A stretch of DNA of 44,550 nt. Origin: a phage. Made by a program: the position numbers and the translations under genes. The DNA is taken from the sequence record PZ445417.1; one strand, 5' to 3'. The stretch's first letter is position 1; each line of letters opens with the position of its first letter. Positions 10,843 through 39,204 of the stretch are shown one piece after another. The notes beneath the pieces are model-generated. The model made no database searches. It was not told the DNA's origin and was given only the letters and a program-made list of their open reading frames with translations.

Positions 10843-11157
10843 AAGCGGGGCAGATCGGGACGTCCCGTTTTGTCCCGCCTTTGCAAAACTGCATACCTAC
10901 TCACTTCCACTGCATAATCTAAAAGCGGGACAAGCGGGACGTCCCGATCTGCCCCGCCCTGTAAATGTGCATACCTATTCATATTTCATGCATAAACCAA
11001 ACGGGACAGAAAGCGGGACAAACATGGGGCGGGACAAAGCGGGACAGCACCCCGTCCCCGCCAGTGCTGCCGCGGGTTTTAGCCGATCGGGACAGGCGGG
11101 ACAAAGCCCAGTCTTTCAGACTAGACGGGGGTCAGTGGCCCCCCTCGTCTGAGACTG
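10843..11157. repeat. non-coding repeat element, copy 1 (inverted repeats, CGGGACA iterons, conserved long hairpin)
   Basis: Inverted arms GCGGGGCAGATCGGGACGTCCCG (10845-10867) and CGGGACGTCCCGATCTGCCCCGC (10935-10957); at least 8 CGGGACA copies; imperfect ~19-bp hairpin at 11109-11157. The distal ~160 bp is about 80% identical to 39047-39204. Confidence 0.7.
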
Positions 11158-26390: not shown

Positions 26391-26441
26391 AATATAATGC
26401 AACCAATATGATTATGCAACCAATATGATTATGCAACCAAT
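26391..26441 (-). promoter_or_regulatory. three tandem 17-bp repeats ATTGGTTGCATAATCAT with a promoter-like arrangement
   Basis: Three direct copies at 26398-26441. On the minus strand: TTGCAT (copy 2), 17 bp, TATATT. Confidence 0.5.
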
Positions 26442-29829: not shown

Positions 29830-32121
29830 TTACTTCCTGTACCTGTACATAATGTCGCCTTCGGCGGCAAGTGGGAAGCCTTTCGCCCAAATAGGCAGGT
29901 CGCACATCAGCGCGCAAAGCTCCTCTGTCGTGTAGTCGTCGGTGTCCGGCACTTCTGTGATCAATTCATCATGCACCGATAGAACGATTTCATAGCCCGC
30001 AGCTTCAACGCCAGGCATTGACCAGGCGAGAATATCACGGCACAACGCCTGTACGATGTTCTCCGTCAGTTTGCCGCCGTAGGTGTACTGGAATCCCCAC
30101 TGGCGCGTCGTCTGATTCTCGCCCTGGTATTTGATGCGGGTGCTGGTGCGCTTCTTGCCGGTGTCTTCGTCAATCTCGGTCGTGACAGACAGCGCGATGC
30201 CTGGGTAGCTCATGATTCGCCCAGACGGCAACTCAATTTTCAACCACCACCCCGCGGCGTTCGGGTCGTCGCGCTCCTCGTCAAAGGTTGGGTCGTGCTT
30301 CGCCTTCGTGCGCACAATCTTGAGCGCTTTCCTACCATCCGGGCGAACGTTCGCGCCAGCCCAGTATGCTTTGCCCGGATTGCGGATTGCACACAACACC
30401 GCGTCCTCAAGCTCGGCCCAAAAGGCTACCGTCTTCGGGTGAGCCTCACGCCACATACGTTTGATTGCGTCACAAGTCAGCCATACGTTTTTCGGCAGTA
30501 TGTATGTTGGGCGCTCGTCTTTCTTGCCAGGCTTCGGCGGGCGCTTCGCTTCGTTAATGCGAGCGTACTCATAACCGCGTTTAGCCGCCGCCCAAATGTG
30601 ATCGGGGAATGTACCCTTCATGACGTCAGCCATAGTGTATAGGTCGAGGCCCAGGTTTTTAGCGAACTGCAAGAACGCCGCGACGCCGCCGCCGTAGCCC
30701 AGCCCCAATTCGCACGCCTTACCAATCTGGCGTAAGTCCTTGCGGTTGGCTTTAATGTATTCCGGGTCAAGACCGAACATCTTACCGGCAGTCTCACAAT
30801 AAATATCGCGTCCGGCCCTAAACACCATTAGCGCGGTTTTCTCGCCAGCGATCCAGGCAAGGCCACGCCCTTCCACGTTGGAGTAGTCCGCTACGACAAA
30901 CTTCTTACCCTTTGCAGGGATAATGCACCCGCGAACGGTCGAGGCCGTTAGCTTCGATATGTCATACGCCCAGTGTGCGGTCCCGCGTAACAGGGAGTTG
31001 ATGCCGTTGGTGAGCATGTGCGATCGGACCCAAAACGAGACGTCGCTTTCACCCTCGCGGCGTTTAATCTTCCCTTCGTGGTCGTCGCTGTACTCGCCAC
31101 GCGCCAGGTTTTGAGGTTGAAAGCCTTTACCGGCCCAGCGTAGCGTGCGCTTTGCCCCACCATACTGAAGACAACCACGGCGGCGACCATCTGCGGATAA
31201 GCCGTTAACTAGCGGATTGTACTTAGTCGATGCCGTTGATGACGCTCCGAGGCGCATTTCGATAAGCGCTTTGCCTTCGTCGGGGAAGTCAGGGTCTTCA
31301 AGCAGGTCGTTAAGTGTGGATTTCTGCGCGTTGTGGATCGTGAACGCCGGGGCGAGGTCGCGCAGCGCTGGCAGGAAGTCATTGCCGGTCAGCTTACCGC
31401 CGAAGCGCTCCCAGGCTTCTTCCTTCAATTCTTCCTTATGCGCCTGCACCGCTTTGATCGCGGCGTTCGCCAGGTCAACGTCCACATAGAAGCCGCGGTC
31501 GTTAATCAACTGGTCGATAAGCAGGATTTCATCTTCCTTCGGAGTATTGCCCCAGTCCGGTATGCGCCAATAGACTTCACGCATTGCGATAATATCCAGC
31601 GCGGCATAGCGCAGAAATTTGGCCCACTCTTCTGGGTGAGTCTCGCGAGTGTAGCGGCGGATTTTGTAGGTCTTAGGGGTAGGCTTACAGAATCGTTTAA
31701 TCAGCGCCTTGCCTGCCTTATCCTTCGCGTGCTCTGCGTCAACTCCCAGCACCTGGCACTGCATATCGAGACTACCCGGCAACGCGTGTCGAAAGGCCAT
31801 AATCATGGTGTCTTCGATCTGGCACACTGGCAGGTCAATACCCCACTTCTCGCGAATAACCAGGCGGTCAAACAGGAGGCCGTTAGCCATCACGATTTTT
31901 GCTTTCTTGCGGGATACCCGGCGGAGCGCCTTGCGCAGTTCACGCGGCATTGTGGGGGACTCGGTGCAATCCCACGTTTGCACGCGGCCTTCATCGATGG
32001 CGTATGTGCAAATCATAATCTCGGTAGTTGGGTGTTCTGCGTAGGCGTACGCACCAACTTTCTTCAGGTCTACCCCGCTAAATGTTTCGGTGTCGAGAAA
32101 CAGGCGTTCGAAGTCTTTCAT
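29830..32121 (-). CDS. DNA polymerase, family A, with 3'-5' exonuclease domain
   Basis: 763 aa. Exo I motif FLDTETFSG; Pol motif A VADYSNVEGR; motif B RQIGKACELGLGYGGG; motif C SVHDEL. GAGGA RBS. Confidence 0.85.
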   Translation of the reverse strand: MKDFERLFLDTETFSGVDLKKVGAYAYAEHPTTEIMICTYAIDEGRVQTWDCTESPTMPRELRKALRRVSRKKAKIVMANGLLFDRLVIREKWGIDLPVCQIEDTMIMAFRHALPGSLDMQCQVLGVDAEHAKDKAGKALIKRFCKPTPKTYKIRRYTRETHPEEWAKFLRYAALDIIAMREVYWRIPDWGNTPKEDEILLIDQLINDRGFYVDVDLANAAIKAVQAHKEELKEEAWERFGGKLTGNDFLPALRDLAPAFTIHNAQKSTLNDLLEDPDFPDEGKALIEMRLGASSTASTKYNPLVNGLSADGRRRGCLQYGGAKRTLRWAGKGFQPQNLARGEYSDDHEGKIKRREGESDVSFWVRSHMLTNGINSLLRGTAHWAYDISKLTASTVRGCIIPAKGKKFVVADYSNVEGRGLAWIAGEKTALMVFRAGRDIYCETAGKMFGLDPEYIKANRKDLRQIGKACELGLGYGGGVAAFLQFAKNLGLDLYTMADVMKGTFPDHIWAAAKRGYEYARINEAKRPPKPGKKDERPTYILPKNVWLTCDAIKRMWREAHPKTVAFWAELEDAVLCAIRNPGKAYWAGANVRPDGRKALKIVRTKAKHDPTFDEERDDPNAAGWWLKIELPSGRIMSYPGIALSVTTEIDEDTGKKRTSTRIKYQGENQTTRQWGFQYTYGGKLTENIVQALCRDILAWSMPGVEAAGYEIVLSVHDELITEVPDTDDYTTEELCALMCDLPIWAKGFPLAAEGDIMYRYRK

Positions 32122-32288
32122 TGCTTAATCCTCACTACGGCGTCAGCGCTGCCGATCATGGAGAAGATGCCGTCTGACAGGGCGATCTCCTCGCCGTTGT
32201 TGCGAATCTCGGCAACTGTGAAATATTCCCCCAGTAGCTTAGACCATACCCGCATTCCGACTTTCACTTCGCTGGCTTTAATACGCAT
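32118..32288 (-). CDS. small hypothetical protein (56 aa)
   Basis: ATG with AGGA RBS. Its stop overlaps the polymerase start (ATGA). Not in the ORF track because it is under 60 aa. Confidence 0.3.
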   Translation of the reverse strand: MRIKASEVKVGMRVWSKLLGEYFTVAEIRNNGEEIALSDGIFSMIGSADAVVRIKQ

Positions 32289-32302
32289 TTTTCATTGTCC
32301 TA

Positions 32303-32328
32303 TTAAAAAGCCCGCATTAAGCGGGCTT
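32303..32328 (-). terminator. rho-independent terminator (minus strand)
   Basis: AAGCCCGC-attaa-GCGGGCTT hairpin followed on the minus strand by UUUUUAAU, just after the SSB-like gene stop. Confidence 0.6.
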
Positions 32329-32346
32329 GAATAGTGGGCTTTGCCC

Positions 32347-33132
32347 TTAACGGCGGCGACGTTTACGTGGCGCTTCGTCTTCGTCGTCTTCGTCCTCATC
32401 TTCGTCATCACGCGACTTGCGACGTTTGCGAGGTTTTTCATCTTCCTCATCGTCGTCGTCATCGCGGCGCTTGGATTTCTTGGACTTGCGCGGCTTGTCA
32501 TCCTCGTCATCGTCATCACGACGTTTTGACTTCTTAGCCTTACGCGGGCTTTCATCTTCGTCATCGTCGCCCAGGTCTTCGTCGGAACATGAAGACCCGC
32601 CACCTCCGAAGGCTTCGCCGTCCTCACGGAATCGCAGACCCAGCAAGCCAGCACCGAGTCCCTTGCCGTTGGTATTGTTCCATGCCCAAATATCAAGGGA
32701 CACGTTGCAATAACAACCGGAGTAGATCTCCTGGCCTTCAATCTCGTCGCCGTCGATGGTCAGACCTTGTTCAGTCTGCTTCTCGCCGAGTGACGTTTGA
32801 ATGATTGGTTGTTTGAACGATTTGGCGTTGATATACAACATGCCTTCGAATTCTTCGGTTACTTCATCGCGCTCGTCGCCGTCGCGAACTGCACATTCCT
32901 TAGAATCCTGGGCGTAGTGGCGGTCCATCCACTTATCGGCATTCTTCTCGGATTTCAGCTTGTCGGTGAGCACTGCGCGTGCTGCCGCTTCCACTTTGTC
33001 CACCTGCGGATCTTCTTTATCCAGAAGAATCACGGCACGGTATGCCGGTTTTTGTCCATCCTGTTTAGGGGTATCACGTTCCCAAATTTTCAGGAAGCAT
33101 ACGCGCACATTTTTCAGGTTGACTTTAGCCAT
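32347..33132 (-). CDS. single-strand DNA-binding protein-like (T7 gp2.5-type) with charged tandem-repeat C-terminal tail
   Basis: 261 aa from the ATG at 33132 (GAGGA RBS). N-terminus MAKVNLKNVRVCF and an FGGGG motif before the tail, as in gp2.5-type SSBs. The last ~70 aa are alternating acidic and basic blocks, mirrored by ~60-bp DNA tandem repeats. Confidence 0.5.
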   Translation of the reverse strand: MAKVNLKNVRVCFLKIWERDTPKQDGQKPAYRAVILLDKEDPQVDKVEAAARAVLTDKLKSEKNADKWMDRHYAQDSKECAVRDGDERDEVTEEFEGMLYINAKSFKQPIIQTSLGEKQTEQGLTIDGDEIEGQEIYSGCYCNVSLDIWAWNNTNGKGLGAGLLGLRFREDGEAFGGGGSSCSDEDLGDDDEDESPRKAKKSKRRDDDDEDDKPRKSKKSKRRDDDDDEEDEKPRKRRKSRDDEDEDEDDEDEAPRKRRRR

Positions 33133-33222
33133 TTTCCAATTCCTCATTTTCACATGTATCGGGGTTATTGGAAGCCACCCCGTTCGGCTTGGTTGCTAAT
33201 TTACTTGGTTGCGCCTAAGCGG

Positions 33223-33465
33223 TCAAGCATTTTCATTAAAAAGATTTCTGGTAACGTAGTTGGTAGCGTTCTCGATCCAGCTTAACGGCGGGCGGTCGCC
33301 ATGTCTCGCGATCCACGCCACGGCAATGGTGCTGTAACCATCGTCCAGCCATTGGGTTGGATGGCGAATCATCCAGGCCACCATTAACACGCCTTGCACA
33401 CAATGCAGGATAAAGCCCAGCGCGCCGATAACAAACATCAATAAGATTGCGAATACTTTATTCAT
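33223..33465 (-). CDS. small membrane protein (80 aa)
   Basis: Two predicted hydrophobic helices (FAILLMFVIGALGFIL, GVLMVAWMI). Confidence 0.4.
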   Translation of the reverse strand: MNKVFAILLMFVIGALGFILHCVQGVLMVAWMIRHPTQWLDDGYSTIAVAWIARHGDRPPLSWIENATNYVTRNLFNENA

Positions 33466-34888
33466 TGCTTAAGTCCTCGTCAGTAGCTACAGACCACGCA
33501 GGGCGCGGGTCGTCGATGGGTGCTAATACCGGTTTAGCCGGTGCGCGCGTGATTTTATCACACAACTTGGCCCACACTTTCGGCTTCTCGTCCTTCAATA
33601 CCTTCTCGGCGTCGGTAGGACTGAGTAATGTTTCTTTGTACATCACGTCGCGCTTGATCCGGGCCTTCGTGAAGATTTCAATCACTTCGCTTTCGTCCGC
33701 CCACTTGCGGATCCCTTCCTTACCGGCAACCATCTTGAGGCCCAGCGCTTCGCCATCGCCAGCCATAACCGCCTTGAATACCGCGGACTCGATAGCCTTG
33801 ATGTGCTGGCGCATTGCGTCTAGACCTTCATATGCCTTGCGCAGTTCCGCGGCGGTCATAGCGCCGGGGGCCGCTTCTTTCTTGCCACGCTTCGCACGTC
33901 GTGCCGCTTTGCGGGCTTCGCGGGCCATATTGCGGTCGTGATTGGCGCATTCTTCCTCTGTCGCAATACTCACGTCGTCGCCCAGGTCTTCGTCTGTTGC
34001 CGTTGGAGGGGTCATCGTGTCGATTGCGGCCTTAGCGCGTGCACTACACTGATCCGCAAATCGGCACCACTGACACGCATCAACGCTCGGTCGGAAGTCG
34101 GCACGGGTGAGTCCTTTCTTACCTCGGGCGTACGCTTCCAGGGCGGAGATAGCACGCTTGGACGCAAACTTCGCGAATATCTCCAGGGCTTCTACCGAAA
34201 TATCCCACTCCGACGCCCCGCCGCAATACGGCTGGAAGATAACAAGGCGCACGGTCGTGATGTCGTACATGGATTGCAGCTTGCGCAGCAGGCCGAGCGC
34301 GTACAGCATAAGCTGTTTGTTTTCTTTCGCCTCGACCTTATGCCGCCCCGTCTTCAGGTCGCCAACAATCAGCATGTACGTGCCGTCGGTCTTCTTCATG
34401 ACCATGACCATATCCGCAGTGCCGAACGTCTTAACCCGGTTGCCGTCGATCTCGAAGCCTGAGTGAAGGACGCGGGTCAGATCGGCGCGCATCTCAAGCT
34501 GAACAAACTCCGCCACTTCGAGGAGCGGTCGCCAGTGGTCGATGTACGCGTCGCACTGTTTCACCATGTCGTCGTTGACCAGTACGCCGCCTTTCGGTGC
34601 TTTCGGGTGGGCCTTTACCGGCCCCTTACCTTCGTTCTCGACGTAGCACCCTTTGTACGTCTTAGCGGTTATCAGCTTCTCACCGGCGATAATACGGTTG
34701 AGAACGACTTCAGATACGGTGTGCATACTCGTACCGTTAATCGCCGCTTGCCCGGATTCGTTCGGGATATCTTTTTCCACCACCAGGGCGGCAGGGCAAC
34801 CCATCCATTTTTTAGCACCGGATGGCCCGAGTAATGAATGTTCCGTATTACTACCGGATTGCGTTTTACGTTTTGGTTTAATCGCCAT
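33458..34888 (-). CDS. Cas4/RecB-like exonuclease (PD-(D/E)xK with Fe-S cysteines)
   Basis: 476 aa. N-terminal Cys (WMGCPA) plus C-terminal cluster C-x2-C-x5-C (CQWCRFADQC) as in Cas4/AddB-type nucleases. Adjacent to the SSB-like gene. Confidence 0.6.
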   Translation of the reverse strand: MAIKPKRKTQSGSNTEHSLLGPSGAKKWMGCPAALVVEKDIPNESGQAAINGTSMHTVSEVVLNRIIAGEKLITAKTYKGCYVENEGKGPVKAHPKAPKGGVLVNDDMVKQCDAYIDHWRPLLEVAEFVQLEMRADLTRVLHSGFEIDGNRVKTFGTADMVMVMKKTDGTYMLIVGDLKTGRHKVEAKENKQLMLYALGLLRKLQSMYDITTVRLVIFQPYCGGASEWDISVEALEIFAKFASKRAISALEAYARGKKGLTRADFRPSVDACQWCRFADQCSARAKAAIDTMTPPTATDEDLGDDVSIATEEECANHDRNMAREARKAARRAKRGKKEAAPGAMTAAELRKAYEGLDAMRQHIKAIESAVFKAVMAGDGEALGLKMVAGKEGIRKWADESEVIEIFTKARIKRDVMYKETLLSPTDAEKVLKDEKPKVWAKLCDKITRAPAKPVLAPIDDPRPAWSVATDEDLSNE

Positions 34889-35369: not shown

Positions 35370-35879
35370 TTAATCTTCCAGTTCGAAATAGGTTTCGACG
35401 ATTTCTTTTAAATCTTTGTGGAAGTCTTCGACGTCGTCATCTTCCAGCTTGGCGATTGATTTGATTTCGAACGCGTCCAGCAGGTCGTCGAATTCGTCGT
35501 TCGCGTCGTCGTCGTCACCGCCGGCAATAATCGCGGCATACTGTTTGATTTCGTCGCGCATCTCTGCCAGCGGATCGGCATCTTTCTTACCTTTGCCTTT
35601 CGCCGGTGCTTTCTTAGCCTTAGCCGGTTTTTCGTCTTCGGCATCTTCGTCGTCATCTTCTACGACTTCTTTTTTGGCCTTACCTTTAGCCGGTGCTTTT
35701 TTAGTTTTCGCTGGTGCTTCGTCTTCAGCGTCGTCATCTTCTACGACTTCTTTTTTGGCCTTAGACGGCTTTTTATCTTCCTGCTTACCAACGGCAGCGC
35801 CAACGGTTTCATAATGTTTAGCGATGATTTCCAGTGCTACTACGCCGCGAGTGATCAGGTTTACGATTTGCTCAAACAT
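35370..35879 (-). CDS. acidic repeat protein (169 aa), first gene of the leftward early operon
   Basis: ATG at 35879 (GGAGA RBS). Internal ~22-aa tandem repeat KAKKEVVEDDDxEDExPAKxKKAPAKGK and a strongly acidic C-terminus, mirrored by a DNA tandem repeat around 35647-35763. Confidence 0.55.
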   Translation of the reverse strand: MFEQIVNLITRGVVALEIIAKHYETVGAAVGKQEDKKPSKAKKEVVEDDDAEDEAPAKTKKAPAKGKAKKEVVEDDDEDAEDEKPAKAKKAPAKGKGKKDADPLAEMRDEIKQYAAIIAGGDDDDANDEFDDLLDAFEIKSIAKLEDDDVEDFHKDLKEIVETYFELED

Positions 35880-36616: not shown

Positions 36617-38887
36617 ATGGCAATGAGCTTAATTAAATTCGCGGTAACAAGACCCGCTAAAAAAGGCGAAAAAGCCAGGGCGGAAAACTTCCAGATGACC
36701 ACCGACGAGTTTTTCGAATTTATCAACGATGCTAAAGAAATATCCTCGGTGCATATCAACAAGACGGAAGATAAAGCCGAGTATGCGCGCCGCAAGCGTA
36801 AGGCCGATGGCATTGTGGCTTATACCAGTGATGGGCTGCGCCGCAAGACCAGTGCGGTGGATCGCTCGATCCTGTTCTTCGATATTGACCGTACCGACAC
36901 CCGCACCCTGCGCCGCTGCCGTAAGGCTTTCATCGACGCAGGACTGGAACATGTATTTCACACCACAACCGGCGACCGCCACCCGCTGAAAGGAGGCACG
37001 CGTTGCGCTCGTTTCCTGGTGCTCACCGATAAGCCTGTACCTGCTGAAGACCTGGGCCGCGTCCAGTATGCACTATTACACCAACTGGGCCTGTCAGATG
37101 TGGACTTCGATGATTGTACGAAAGACACAAACCGCCTTATGTACCTGCCTCACCAGCAATCGGTTATTAAGTGTCACTACGGCAAACGTGCCCGCGTCCG
37201 TCGTCTGCTTCGCCTGGCTGATAAGCTGGGAGTGGAAAAAGAGGAAGTACGCCGCGAACTAACCCAGGGCGATGACGGCGTGGCTGACGGTATTCTGGAT
37301 TGGTGCTTCCAGGCGGGATTCGAACCGCTGTCGTCCGGGCGTGGCTATGAAGTGCCGTGCCCTAACGAACACCTGCACAGCGGCGAAGGGTCCACCGCTA
37401 TCATGGTTAAGGATGGAGAGATCCGTTTCAAGTGTATGCACACCGGCAACGAGTGTTGCTCGGAACTGAACAGACACCAGCACCTGGCGCTACGTCTTAT
37501 CGGGATACCGGACCACCTGAACGTCGAACCACACAACATGTCTCGTAAGCAAATCGCCGCCATCCTTCCGGGACTGGACGACGAGGAAGTCGAATCGTGC
37601 TATGAACATATCGTTGATGCGGTCGGTGACGGCGACGAGTACGGCGGATGTACGGACGCAGACCTGGACAACGAGCCGGTTGCACTGTTCAGCAAGCACG
37701 ACCCGATCATCGAGGGGTTGATTAACTTTAAATCGACCTGGTACATGGCTGGCGAGTCGAACATCGGTAAATCTTTCTACGTGCTGGGGCAGATGGGTGC
37801 GATTGCCGCGGGCATTCCGTTTGGCGGTGCGAAGGTCGTCCAGTCTCATTGCTTCTATTTCGACGCGGAAGGTGGCGAAGCCTCTAACCAGCGTAAGGAG
37901 GCATTGCAGATCAAATATGAGCACGACCTGGACAAGCTGCACATTATAGACCTGCAATCACGCGGCTGGGATATCACCAGCAAATCCGGCTTGCGTGAAG
38001 TTATCAGCTTCATCAACCGCACCGCTAACGGCGAACCGGTGGGCCTGGTGGCGTTCGACTCACTCAACCAGACTGTTGCGCTGCGGTCCGCCGATGCTAA
38101 ACCGTTCGACGAGAACAACGCCAGCGATATGGGCGAAGTGGTCAAGGCGCTGAAGGCCATCGCAGAAAATACAGGCGGCAGTGCGGGCGTCATCCACCAC
38201 CCGGCGAAGGGTGCAAACGGCAGTAGATCCCCCCGCGGGTCCGGCGCGCTGCATGGTGCTGTCGATTCCGCGTTCTTCCTGGAGCAACCGGACGACAATC
38301 AGCCGGGCCAATTGAACCTGTATCACGAAAAAGCACGTAACGGCATCAAGCAAGCGCCGCGTGGCTTCGTCCTGCTCAAGTGCAAGGTTAAGGTGGATCT
38401 CCGCAAGTCCGAGGCGTTCGAATCGCACCAGTCCACCAGCACCGGGCCGGACTTCGGCGATGTGGTTGCCGGTTGGGACGTCAAGCCAATTGCCTCCACG
38501 CCACGCGACGAGACTCTTTACCTCGTACCGGTCGCCCTGGCGCCGTTCGCAATCGAACAGGCAAAGGCAGCGGGCAAAGCAGCAGTTAAGGAAGAGAACA
38601 CCGCCGGACCGCGCAACGAAAAAGAGAAAGTGCTTTATGCGGCACTGGAAAAACTGATGGAAGATAACCCGGACCATACCGGATTCAGTAAATCGGCGAT
38701 TGTCCGCCAGGCGGGATTGGCAAAAGGTGGCACATCGACGAAGGCAATCGACGATATGGTCGAGCGCGGCGTACTCGGTTTTTATACAGATCCGCACACT
38801 GGGGCCATCTATGGGTCGTCGAATATCGTCATTAAAACAAGTATACCCATCACGCTTTCGGCGACAGATGACGACCTGAAAGATTAA
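36617..38887 (+). CDS. DNA primase/helicase (prim-pol-like N-terminal domain plus RecA-like ATPase)
   Basis: 756 aa. N-terminal acidic motif LFFDIDR and HVFHTTTG (archaeo-eukaryotic primase-like), a Cys/His cluster, and Walker A GESNIGKS with Walker B-like VAFDSLNQ. Confidence 0.7.
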   Translation: MAMSLIKFAVTRPAKKGEKARAENFQMTTDEFFEFINDAKEISSVHINKTEDKAEYARRKRKADGIVAYTSDGLRRKTSAVDRSILFFDIDRTDTRTLRRCRKAFIDAGLEHVFHTTTGDRHPLKGGTRCARFLVLTDKPVPAEDLGRVQYALLHQLGLSDVDFDDCTKDTNRLMYLPHQQSVIKCHYGKRARVRRLLRLADKLGVEKEEVRRELTQGDDGVADGILDWCFQAGFEPLSSGRGYEVPCPNEHLHSGEGSTAIMVKDGEIRFKCMHTGNECCSELNRHQHLALRLIGIPDHLNVEPHNMSRKQIAAILPGLDDEEVESCYEHIVDAVGDGDEYGGCTDADLDNEPVALFSKHDPIIEGLINFKSTWYMAGESNIGKSFYVLGQMGAIAAGIPFGGAKVVQSHCFYFDAEGGEASNQRKEALQIKYEHDLDKLHIIDLQSRGWDITSKSGLREVISFINRTANGEPVGLVAFDSLNQTVALRSADAKPFDENNASDMGEVVKALKAIAENTGGSAGVIHHPAKGANGSRSPRGSGALHGAVDSAFFLEQPDDNQPGQLNLYHEKARNGIKQAPRGFVLLKCKVKVDLRKSEAFESHQSTSTGPDFGDVVAGWDVKPIASTPRDETLYLVPVALAPFAIEQAKAAGKAAVKEENTAGPRNEKEKVLYAALEKLMEDNPDHTGFSKSAIVRQAGLAKGGTSTKAIDDMVERGVLGFYTDPHTGAIYGSSNIVIKTSIPITLSATDDDLKD

Positions 38888-38962: not shown

Positions 38963-39046
38963 ATTTTGGGCGTTTTTAACTGGTCGTATTGGTTGCCGTG
39001 TAGTGTAAATATAATGAATAGTTATGCAATAAAACTGCATAAAGTA

Positions 39047-39204
39047 AGCGGGACAAAAAGCGGGACAAACAAGGGGCGGGACAAAGCGGGACAGCACCCC
39101 TGTCCCGCCCCGGATGACGCGGCCTGGAGAGGAGCGGGACAGCGGGACAGCACCCCAGTCTTTCAGACTAGACGGGGGTCAACGGCCCCCCTCGTCTGAG
39201 ACTG
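39047..39204. repeat. non-coding repeat element, copy 2 (CGGGACA iterons plus conserved hairpin)
   Basis: Six CGGGACA copies, a GCGGGACAG-cacccc-TGTCCCGCC dyad, and a hairpin at 39156-39204 that differs from copy 1 only in its loop. Confidence 0.7.

Follow-up and report, generated by a model that had tools for sequence, protein, structure and literature searches.

The window analysed here is the whole 44,550-nt stretch of phage DNA in sequence record PZ445417.1. Judging from the match of its SSB gene region and protein core to Dhillonvirus phages, it is a near-complete Dhillonvirus genome. Its minus strand encodes an SSB (single-stranded DNA-binding protein) of 261 aa, in which the C-terminal tail consists of alternating acidic and basic blocks and ends in a run of arginines, where an acidic and hydrophobic tip is usual. 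The best overall explanation, to which a probability of about 0.5 can be given, is a disordered, three-layered C-terminal tail of the Dhillonvirus replication and recombination SSB with a putative tuning role. The identity and architecture of the protein are hardly in doubt. The gene and its parts are as follows.

32350..33132, minus strand: SSB gene, 261 aa, with TAA stop at 32347-32349 (from the list of open reading frames (ORFs), PF10991, and phrog_112)
32596..33132, minus strand: oligonucleotide/oligosaccharide-binding (OB) fold core, residues 1-179, with FGGGG at its end
32569..32595, minus strand: proximal acidic/hydrophobic motif SSCSDEDLG, residues 180-188, equivalent of the classical family tail
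32518..32568, minus strand: repeat unit 1, DDDEDE-SP-RKAKKSKRR, 17 aa, 51 bp
32464..32517, minus strand: repeat unit 2, DDDDEDD-KP-RKSKKSKRR, 18 aa, 54 bp
32410..32463, minus strand: repeat unit 3, DDDDDEEDE-KP-RKRRKSR, 18 aa, 54 bp
32350..32409, minus strand: repeat unit 4, DDEDEDEDDEDE-AP-RKRRRR, 20 aa, 60 bp, directly followed by the stop codon
32350-32373, minus strand: last 8 residues, an arginine-rich C-terminus retained whatever the number of units

The tail after FGGGG is 82 aa long and reaches 32595. The charged peptide quoted for this place in a preliminary description, made from the letters alone, is the exact minus-strand product. The feature was also correctly located there, but the end given for it, 32560, misses the start of unit 1 by 8 nt. 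The units are indeed in tandem, with lengths of 51, 54, 54, and 60 bp where about 60 bp had been given for all. Tandem Repeats Finder recognized a 54-bp period in 2.3 copies with 79% matches at 32443-32568. Pairwise DNA identity between the units is only 58-75%, and they are thus old, diverged repeats and not recent duplicates. The 82 residues include 28 K/R and 37 D/E, with a charged fraction of 0.79 and a net charge per residue of -0.11. Charge segregation (kappa) is 0.56, compared with 0.11 +/- 0.04 in shuffled tails, and none of 5000 shuffles reached 0.56. With its charges strongly segregated and nearly balanced, the tail is a polyampholyte, and in a six-frame translation of the window it is the only segment that reaches at least 20 charged residues in 30 with at least seven of each sign. 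Along the repeat units (residues 181 onward) the predicted local distance difference test score (pLDDT) is 46-54, and the tail is accordingly modelled as disordered.

Three layers can be distinguished: the proximal SDEDLGDD, one to four units of the type [6-12 D/E]-x-Pro-[6-8 K/R with S/A], and the PRKRRRR terminus. The polarity of the unit is strict, as proline always stands at the acidic-to-basic junction, even in relatives that share only 27-37% identity. Throughout the family the core is followed by an acidic motif containing F, L, or W, and in the window protein the short acidic and hydrophobic motif of a classical tail is present as SDEDLGDD directly after the core. The other two marks of a classical tail are missing: the tail is not net acidic with essentially no basic residues, and no hydrophobic or aromatic residue stands at or beside the C-terminus, the protein ending in ...EAPRKRRRR. 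The arginine-rich terminus stands in place of the usual acidic/hydrophobic tip. Reading SPRK/KKSKRR as a nuclear localization signal or a cyclin-dependent kinase site was ruled out by the bacterial host and the non-conserved serine.

As to the protein itself, ATG at 33132 is the probable start, with GAGGA 8 nt upstream, and the resulting 261 aa equal the length of the main public cluster (P0001). GTG at 33153, which gives 268 aa in the mechanical ORF list, is disfavoured, since it is the ATG that has GAGGA at that distance. PF10991 (Enc34_ssDNA-bd, formerly DUF2815) was matched with 109.4 bits against a cut-off of 26 (E 2.1e-31), over residues 10-200 of the 268-aa reading and profile positions 2-172 of 176. 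The match to phrog_112, 'Gp2.5-like ssDNA binding and annealing protein', has E 1.8e-54. The gp2.5-type OB fold, a beta-barrel capped by a long helix, was found, and the sequence search matched three solved family members, the Enc34 SSB among them. DNA contacts in this family are expected from a lysine equivalent to Enc34 Lys46 and from an aromatic stack. In HMMER alignments, K39 (LLDKED), a candidate for that lysine, is aligned to the PK motif of 4klk, 4jg2, and 5odj; Y137, in a Y-x-G-C motif, is almost invariant in such alignments. The T7 gp2.5 structure 1je5 gave no phmmer hit at E up to 1, and the bacterial SSB domain PF00436 gave no match at E up to 0.01. Because the relation to gp2.5 is detectable at fold level only, the protein is gp2.5-like by fold and a member of the Enc34/DUF2815 family by sequence, not a gp2.5 orthologue. 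The profile searches thus bear out the SSB fold, while the earlier label of a T7 gp2.5-type SSB holds for the fold and fails for the sequence. Preferential ssDNA binding in the PF10991 family was demonstrated for Enc34 ORF6 only (PMC5686142).

The SSB gene region matches 153 phage records with 84-97% DNA identity, nearly all of them Escherichia or Shigella Dhillonvirus (HK578-like siphophages), and the protein core is 98-100% identical to the cores of Teewinot, BF9, and SECphi4. The tail is present in frame across the genus, and 152 of the 153 records cover at least 80% of the gene region. The number of units varies, as the preliminary description had supposed it might among related phages. 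Sixteen IMG/VR loci have four, three, or two units. Translated four-unit alleles are 256-261 aa long and three-unit alleles 236-247 aa (for example the HK578-like L010, the EK99P-1-like L007, and SECphi4); a two-unit allele of 224 aa is found in the EP23-like L012, and a one-unit allele of 202 aa with the tail ...SDEDLDNDDEDEAPRKRRRR in phage 'welsh', a K-12-grown isolate. Among 60 records sampled evenly from the 153 GenBank hits, about 48 have four units, nine have three, and one each has two units, one unit, or a partial match, these numbers being inferred from the length of the matched span and not from translation. Unit 2 is missing from three-unit relatives such as L007, L010, and L011, and unit 3 from the two-unit and one-unit relatives. 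According to the alignment, the deletion junctions lie in or beside acidic codon runs, and the first unit and the terminal ..EAPRKRRRR are kept in every case. The unit number changes via in-frame deletions or duplications with junctions in or beside GAY/GAR acidic codon runs. All intact translated Dhillonvirus tails end in PRKRRRR, except that of the most divergent locus, L016, which ends in PRSRRNRR. By its conservation, the arginine-rich terminus appears to behave as an indispensable part of the tail.

Selection was estimated from 16 Dhillonvirus sequences, the window and 15 IMG/VR loci. The ratio of nonsynonymous to synonymous divergence (pN/pS) is 0.10-0.17 in the tail and 0.06-0.08 in the core. 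Synonymous divergence (pS) is 0.32-0.35 in the tail and 0.25-0.31 in the core, and about half of the variable tail columns are swaps between D and E or between K and R. The low pN/pS of the tail, its synonymous divergence at least as high as that of the core, and the like-for-like swaps mean that purifying selection on the peptide, not on the DNA, keeps the charge pattern.

Irregular versions of the repeat exist in public data. Two protein clusters, P0005 (Escherichia phage vB_EcoS-22664B1, NCBI) and P0008, carry a frameshifted tail that runs from ..AMTKMKHRARLRS.. through to ..GFLLGQ. The IMG/VR contig L014 breaks within the repeat and continues with seemingly adapter-derived sequence (..AVSYTHLRAHET). 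Errors of sequencing, assembly, and annotation seem to arise easily in this repeat. Programmed frameshifting was considered and rejected: GAY/AAR codons account for the alternative open frame at 32292-32741, and among public sequences the frameshifted form turns up only as rare singletons.

The frequency of such tails in the PF10991 family was determined with a core-only exhaustive HMMER search of 1.8 billion cluster representatives, which gave 140 representatives with a near-complete core. A full-length homologue search returned almost only mixed-charge tails and was excluded from the frequencies, because tail words bias it towards such tails. Purely acidic tails, with a median length of 24 aa, were found in 125 of the 140 representatives (89%), and in 123 of the 125 at least one of the last three residues is hydrophobic (e.g., ..DDDIPF, ..DDLPW, ..EDDLI). 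One basic block was found in six representatives and two or more in nine. Bordetella BPP-1, Marinobacter PS6, and Chi-like phage E21 have purely acidic tails. One unit is present in Jerseyvirus and Kagunavirus (..DDLEDDEDETPRRERRRNR and ..DLEDDEEDEAPRRERRRR), two units plus ..YEDDEE in Cornellvirus, and three units with the end ..RRSRDDD in Eiauvirus. Related ends are PRRERRRNR and PRRERRRR in Jerseyvirus/Kagunavirus and ERPRRRRR or QPRRRSRR in many metagenomic relatives.

In a neighbour-joining tree of 248 cores, which is crude and only indicative, mixed-charge tails fill the entire clade holding the window protein, and their ends are a basic run, alone or with a few acidic residues after it. 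A second, distant mixed-charge clade has three to nine basic blocks by count with a 13-14-aa period (e.g., DDDEDERPKRRSR), and its members mostly end in a short acidic stretch and a hydrophobic residue, such as ..DDDDVA. Further mixed-charge tails are scattered among acidic-tailed lineages, and parsimony requires 15 changes, which suggests that mixed-charge tails were recurrently gained or lost. The tail is therefore unusual, as had been proposed, in the family as a whole, but within its own clade of enterobacterial siphophages it is the rule and not an oddity. A protein search with the tail by itself gave no hit, none of 8000 collected candidates receiving a score, presumably an effect of composition filtering. 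The tail alone weakly matches phrog_15004 (annotated SSB) at positions 301-392 (E 3e-4), a hint that similar charged tails may exist in this unrelated phage SSB family.

The SSB gene lies in a replication/recombination module on the minus strand. The order is DUF2800 exonuclease, an 80-aa protein, SSB, a terminator hairpin, a 56-aa protein, and family A DNA polymerase, with an SNF2-type helicase further downstream. The features of this neighbourhood are listed below.

33458..34888, minus strand: DUF2800 PD-(D/E)XK exonuclease, upstream of SSB (Pfam PF10926, E 9e-67)
33198..33226, minus strand: promoter-like site TTGACC-17-TAAATT upstream of the SSB gene, a consensus match only
32302..32328, minus strand: likely intrinsic terminator 3' of the SSB gene, hairpin AGCCCGC-TTAAT-GCGGGCT and then a T run, read from the sequence
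32118-32288, minus strand: 56-aa gene in the SSB-polymerase interval (phrog_10102)
29830..32121, minus strand: family A DNA polymerase, downstream of SSB (Pfam PF00476, phrog_17)
36617-38887, opposite strand to the SSB module: helicase-primase

The setting typical of the PF10991 family, with a DUF2800 exonuclease upstream and a family A polymerase downstream, is thus found in the window, and the polymerase is a candidate partner of the SSB tail. Contig comparison revealed that the exonuclease-SSB-polymerase order is kept in distant relatives as well. Two distant members with mixed tails also lie in an exonuclease-SSB module, P0103 from the second clade and P0096, which is not on the tree. The polymerase is recognized by Pfam on the P0096 contig, and a 694-aa protein without a Pfam hit is at that position on the P0103 contig. 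The hairpin 3' of the SSB gene is absent from the output of the consensus terminator scan; 'terminator' features are annotated beneath the matching region in the relatives PTXU06, WFI, and WF5505. The 56-aa gene is a homologue of the 'SECphi4 56aa protein of unknown function', and E21fs frameshift mutants of the SECphi4 56aa gene are among the defence-escape mutants of SECphi4/SECphi6 (supplement, 10.1101/2022.08.27.505566).

The proximal motif of the SSB tail has a counterpart in the exonuclease. The exonuclease C-terminus ...SVATDEDLSNE (33461-33487) and an internal TATDEDLGDD (TDEDLGDD at 33974-33997) echo the SSB ..CSDEDLGDD. An acidic and hydrophobic motif of the SSB proximal type is carried by the C-terminus of the upstream exonuclease in 11 of 13 loci compared (the window, L017, L019-L022, L024-L029, and L031), which are few and not all independent. 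The pairs of L031 and Jerseyvirus are the weakest, the best match chosen automatically in Jerseyvirus lying outside the motif. The motif covaries by lineage (DEDL, DEFDDLD, DFxxF, [AV]WDD): PS6 has DEFDDLD and L027 has DDDFE in both proteins, L026 has SAQSDFSQF in the exonuclease and SAKQDFKGF in SSB, and E21 has EVWDD and EAWDD, respectively. The mean of the best 7-mer BLOSUM score is 24.1 for own-locus pairs and 16.5 for cross-locus pairs, and none of 20000 permuted pairings reached the own-pair mean. This suggests that exonuclease and SSB may use a single docking motif for the same site. Candidates for that site are the polymerase and the SSB groove that in the Enc34 crystal receives the tail of a neighbouring molecule (PMC5686142). 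With the motif common to the exonuclease and to the first residues of the SSB tail, the segment beside the core probably still performs the role of a classical tail, to which the mixed-charge repeats would have been added distally.

Compared with known systems, the tail is a distinct variant. In work on T7 gp2.5, T4 gp32, and E. coli SSB, replisome coordination is built on the SSB tail. The T7 gp2.5 tail is strongly net acidic and ends in an essential aromatic residue (..DEDGDF), whereas the window tail consists of near-neutral repeats ending in RRRR. SSB of the E. coli type (OB tetramer, disordered linker, DDDIPF tip) has the same layout of core, disordered linker of variable length, and terminal motif. 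It belongs, however, to a different OB family (PF00436), and its linker is Gly/Gln/Pro-rich and nearly uncharged, while in the window protein about 85% of the linker residues carry a charge and the motif at the end is basic. The distant PF10991 relatives P0114 and P0096 have mixed-charge repeats and ends in ..DDDDDIPF or ..DDDDDLPF. T4 gp32 has a basic (K/R)3(S/T)2 'LAST' motif for cooperativity and an acidic segment for partner binding and autoinhibition. The basic blocks RKSKKSKRR of the window protein resemble the 'LAST' composition, which may be read as a functional analogy only, as the basic and acidic segments of T4 gp32 are single-copy, stand at opposite termini, and belong to a different fold family. 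Enc34 ORF6 (PDB 5odj/5odk/5odl), the founder of PF10991/DUF2815, has a purely acidic tail with D/E in 16 of the last 29 residues, without basic blocks, repeats, or an arginine tip, and ends in WDEDEV according to the cloning primer printed in the same paper, where an acidic tail is called characteristic of all prokaryotic and phage SSBs (PMC5686142).

By analogy with these systems, a mechanism can be put forward tentatively; it is the likeliest reading of the function, yet less likely than not, and far less secure than the tail architecture that it would explain. As in T7 gp2.5 and Enc34 ORF6, the acidic blocks would mimic ssDNA and fold back onto the basic cleft that binds DNA, thereby sharpening the preference for ssDNA over dsDNA; Enc34 ORF6 without its tail binds dsDNA (PMC5686142), and this counts for such a role of an acidic tail. 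Partners could dock on the same blocks. The basic blocks between them would partly cancel the effect of the acidic ones and add another means of electrostatic contact, either with the DNA backbone or with acidic blocks on neighbouring SSBs. As a blocky polyampholyte, the tail may in this way tune cooperativity, annealing, or self-association on ssDNA, with a strength set by the number of units. The arginine-rich tip would be an essential terminal element replacing the hydrophobic tip, and it probably contacts nucleic acid or an acidic partner. Several points weigh against a tuning tail of this kind. For any mixed-charge tail the mechanism is drawn by analogy. The internal units are dispensable for viability, as the one-unit phage 'welsh' demonstrates, and any effect of unit number may therefore be subtle. 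In T7 gp2.5 and E. coli SSB a hydrophobic or aromatic last residue is essential; it is missing from this terminus, so that partner docking may differ much from that proposed. Also, when the Plasmodium SSB linker was swapped into E. coli SSB, the highly charged linker reportedly lowered cooperativity and did not raise it.

More speculative, and somewhat doubtful, is a second mode of SSB communication. Mixed-charge, arginine-tipped tails would act there instead of an acidic/hydrophobic tip that plugs basic pockets of partners. Neighbouring molecules would be zipped via their acidic and basic blocks into assemblies of tunable cooperativity or condensates on ssDNA, the arginine tip would bind nucleic acid or an acidic partner, and the docking motif would have moved beside the core and be common to the exonuclease. 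If this were true, the recurrence in several PF10991 lineages that the neighbour-joining tree suggests would point to a general physical principle and not to a quirk of one clade.

Other explanations of the tail were weighed against the same data. A neutral low-complexity expansion, which recombination or slippage would have produced in a tract of purine-rich codons and which is tolerated in a disordered tail but adds no function to that of a short charged tail, would agree with the viable isolates of one, two, three, or four units, with deletion junctions in or beside acidic codon runs, and with the disorder of the tail. It is nevertheless unlikely, as the tail pN/pS of 0.10-0.17 indicates purifying selection, four units are by far the commonest state (about 80% of sampled records), and the first and last units are essentially invariant. 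Moreover, the acid-x-Pro-base polarity and the near balance of charges are kept at 27-37% core identity despite different unit lengths. The diversification of tail length and charge could alternatively be an adaptation to evade host immunity that senses phage SSBs. Retron-Eco8 (SECphi4/18) and type III Sir2-HerA are both triggered by near-identical Dhillonvirus SSBs, ShosTA escapers carry mutations in such SSBs, and copy number is polymorphic within the genus. An anti-defence origin is still improbable, since escape from Retron-Eco8 has been recorded for T56P in the core and for a promoter change upstream, with no mutation in the tail, and since several genera have kept this type of tail. Besides, the C-tail of T7 gp2.5 is dispensable for Eco8 activation while the OB fold is required (PMC13402713).

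A role of the 51-60-bp repeats as DNA, with the gene's 3' end holding iterons, an origin, or a regulatory site (cf. lambda ori in gene O) and the peptide being incidental, is suggested by tandem repeats in the middle of a replication module. This is very improbable: synonymous sites diverge in the tail as fast as or faster than in the core (0.32-0.35 vs. 0.25-0.31), the units are just 58-75% identical in DNA and vary in number from one to four, and unrelated DNA encodes the same peptide pattern in distant relatives. Better cis-element candidates also exist elsewhere in the window, namely the AAGCGGGAC clusters at 10923-11045 and 39046-39092. A misassembled repeat or a frameshifted reading of the true C-terminus might be suspected from the break of contig L014 inside the repeat and from the frameshifted tail in clusters P0005 and P0008. 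An artefact can practically be dismissed, as the tail is in frame in the 153 phage records, among them isolates from many laboratories and the SECphi4/18 sequences of a published table, and the reading frame stops just upstream of the terminator hairpin. The concern about assembly raised in the preliminary description is likewise settled by these 153 matching records, 152 of them with at least 80% of the gene region. The explanation preferred here is the disordered, layered SSB tail with a putative tuning role.

Close homologues of this protein were already used experimentally. The SSBs of SECphi4 and SECphi18 were predicted as SSBs, superposed on T7 gp2.5, and found to trigger Retron-Eco8; only residues 1-186 are displayed, and the 'flexible C-terminal residues' are neither displayed nor discussed (bioRxiv 10.1101/2022.08.27.505566). 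They are essentially the same protein as the SSB of the window, with a core 98-99% identical and the same tail type, of three units in SECphi4 and four in SECphi18. SECphi4 escaped Retron-Eco8 by T56P in the SSB core or by a change in the intergenic region upstream of the SSB gene. Type III Sir2-HerA is also triggered by a Dhillonvirus SSB, and SSB mutations help SECphi4/18 to escape ShosTA. No description of a mixed-charge, arginine-tipped SSB tail was found in the searchable literature. The protein itself is of a known kind, and the tail is a distinct C-terminal variant of SSB that is undescribed as far as that literature goes.

A large and well-sampled phage group thus departs from the generalization of the acidic tail, having repetitive, basic-tipped SSB tails that are close to neutral. 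Hundreds of isolates used in phage therapy and in research on defence systems come from Dhillonvirus, Jerseyvirus, Kagunavirus, Cornellvirus, and Eiauvirus taken together. The natural alleles of one, two, three, and four units make the tail directly testable, as the phages grow on E. coli K-12 and the protein was already cloned as the trigger of Retron-Eco8 and Sir2-HerA. Constructs ending at about residue 186 leave out a conserved part of the protein, and automated annotation at times frameshifts or truncates the SSB gene.

Other repeats were identified in the window. A gene at 35370-35879 on the minus strand, in the replication module, encodes 169 aa from M61 of its ORF and belongs to phrog_3127 of unknown function; its product has no Pfam match. 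It contains two 27-aa mixed-charge repeats (KAKKEVVEDDDAEDEAPAKTKKAPAKG) that derive from an 81-bp tandem repeat at 35596-35763 with 82% matches. This gene may be a candidate counterpart of the HK578 gene 'close to the exonuclease and SSB' that is mutated in an OLD escaper (bioRxiv 10.64898/2026.07.10.737580). The 9-mer AAGCGGGAC is present in seven copies on the plus strand, in the two tight clusters already named, against 0.47 expected, and no shuffle reached seven. The copies sit within larger tandem repeats (78 bp in 2.1 copies at 10843-11008), and the clusters are candidates for regulatory or origin-type repeats. A perfect 17-bp tandem repeat in 2.6 copies (ATGCAACCAATATGATT) lies at 26397-26441, between ORFs of the early/replication region.

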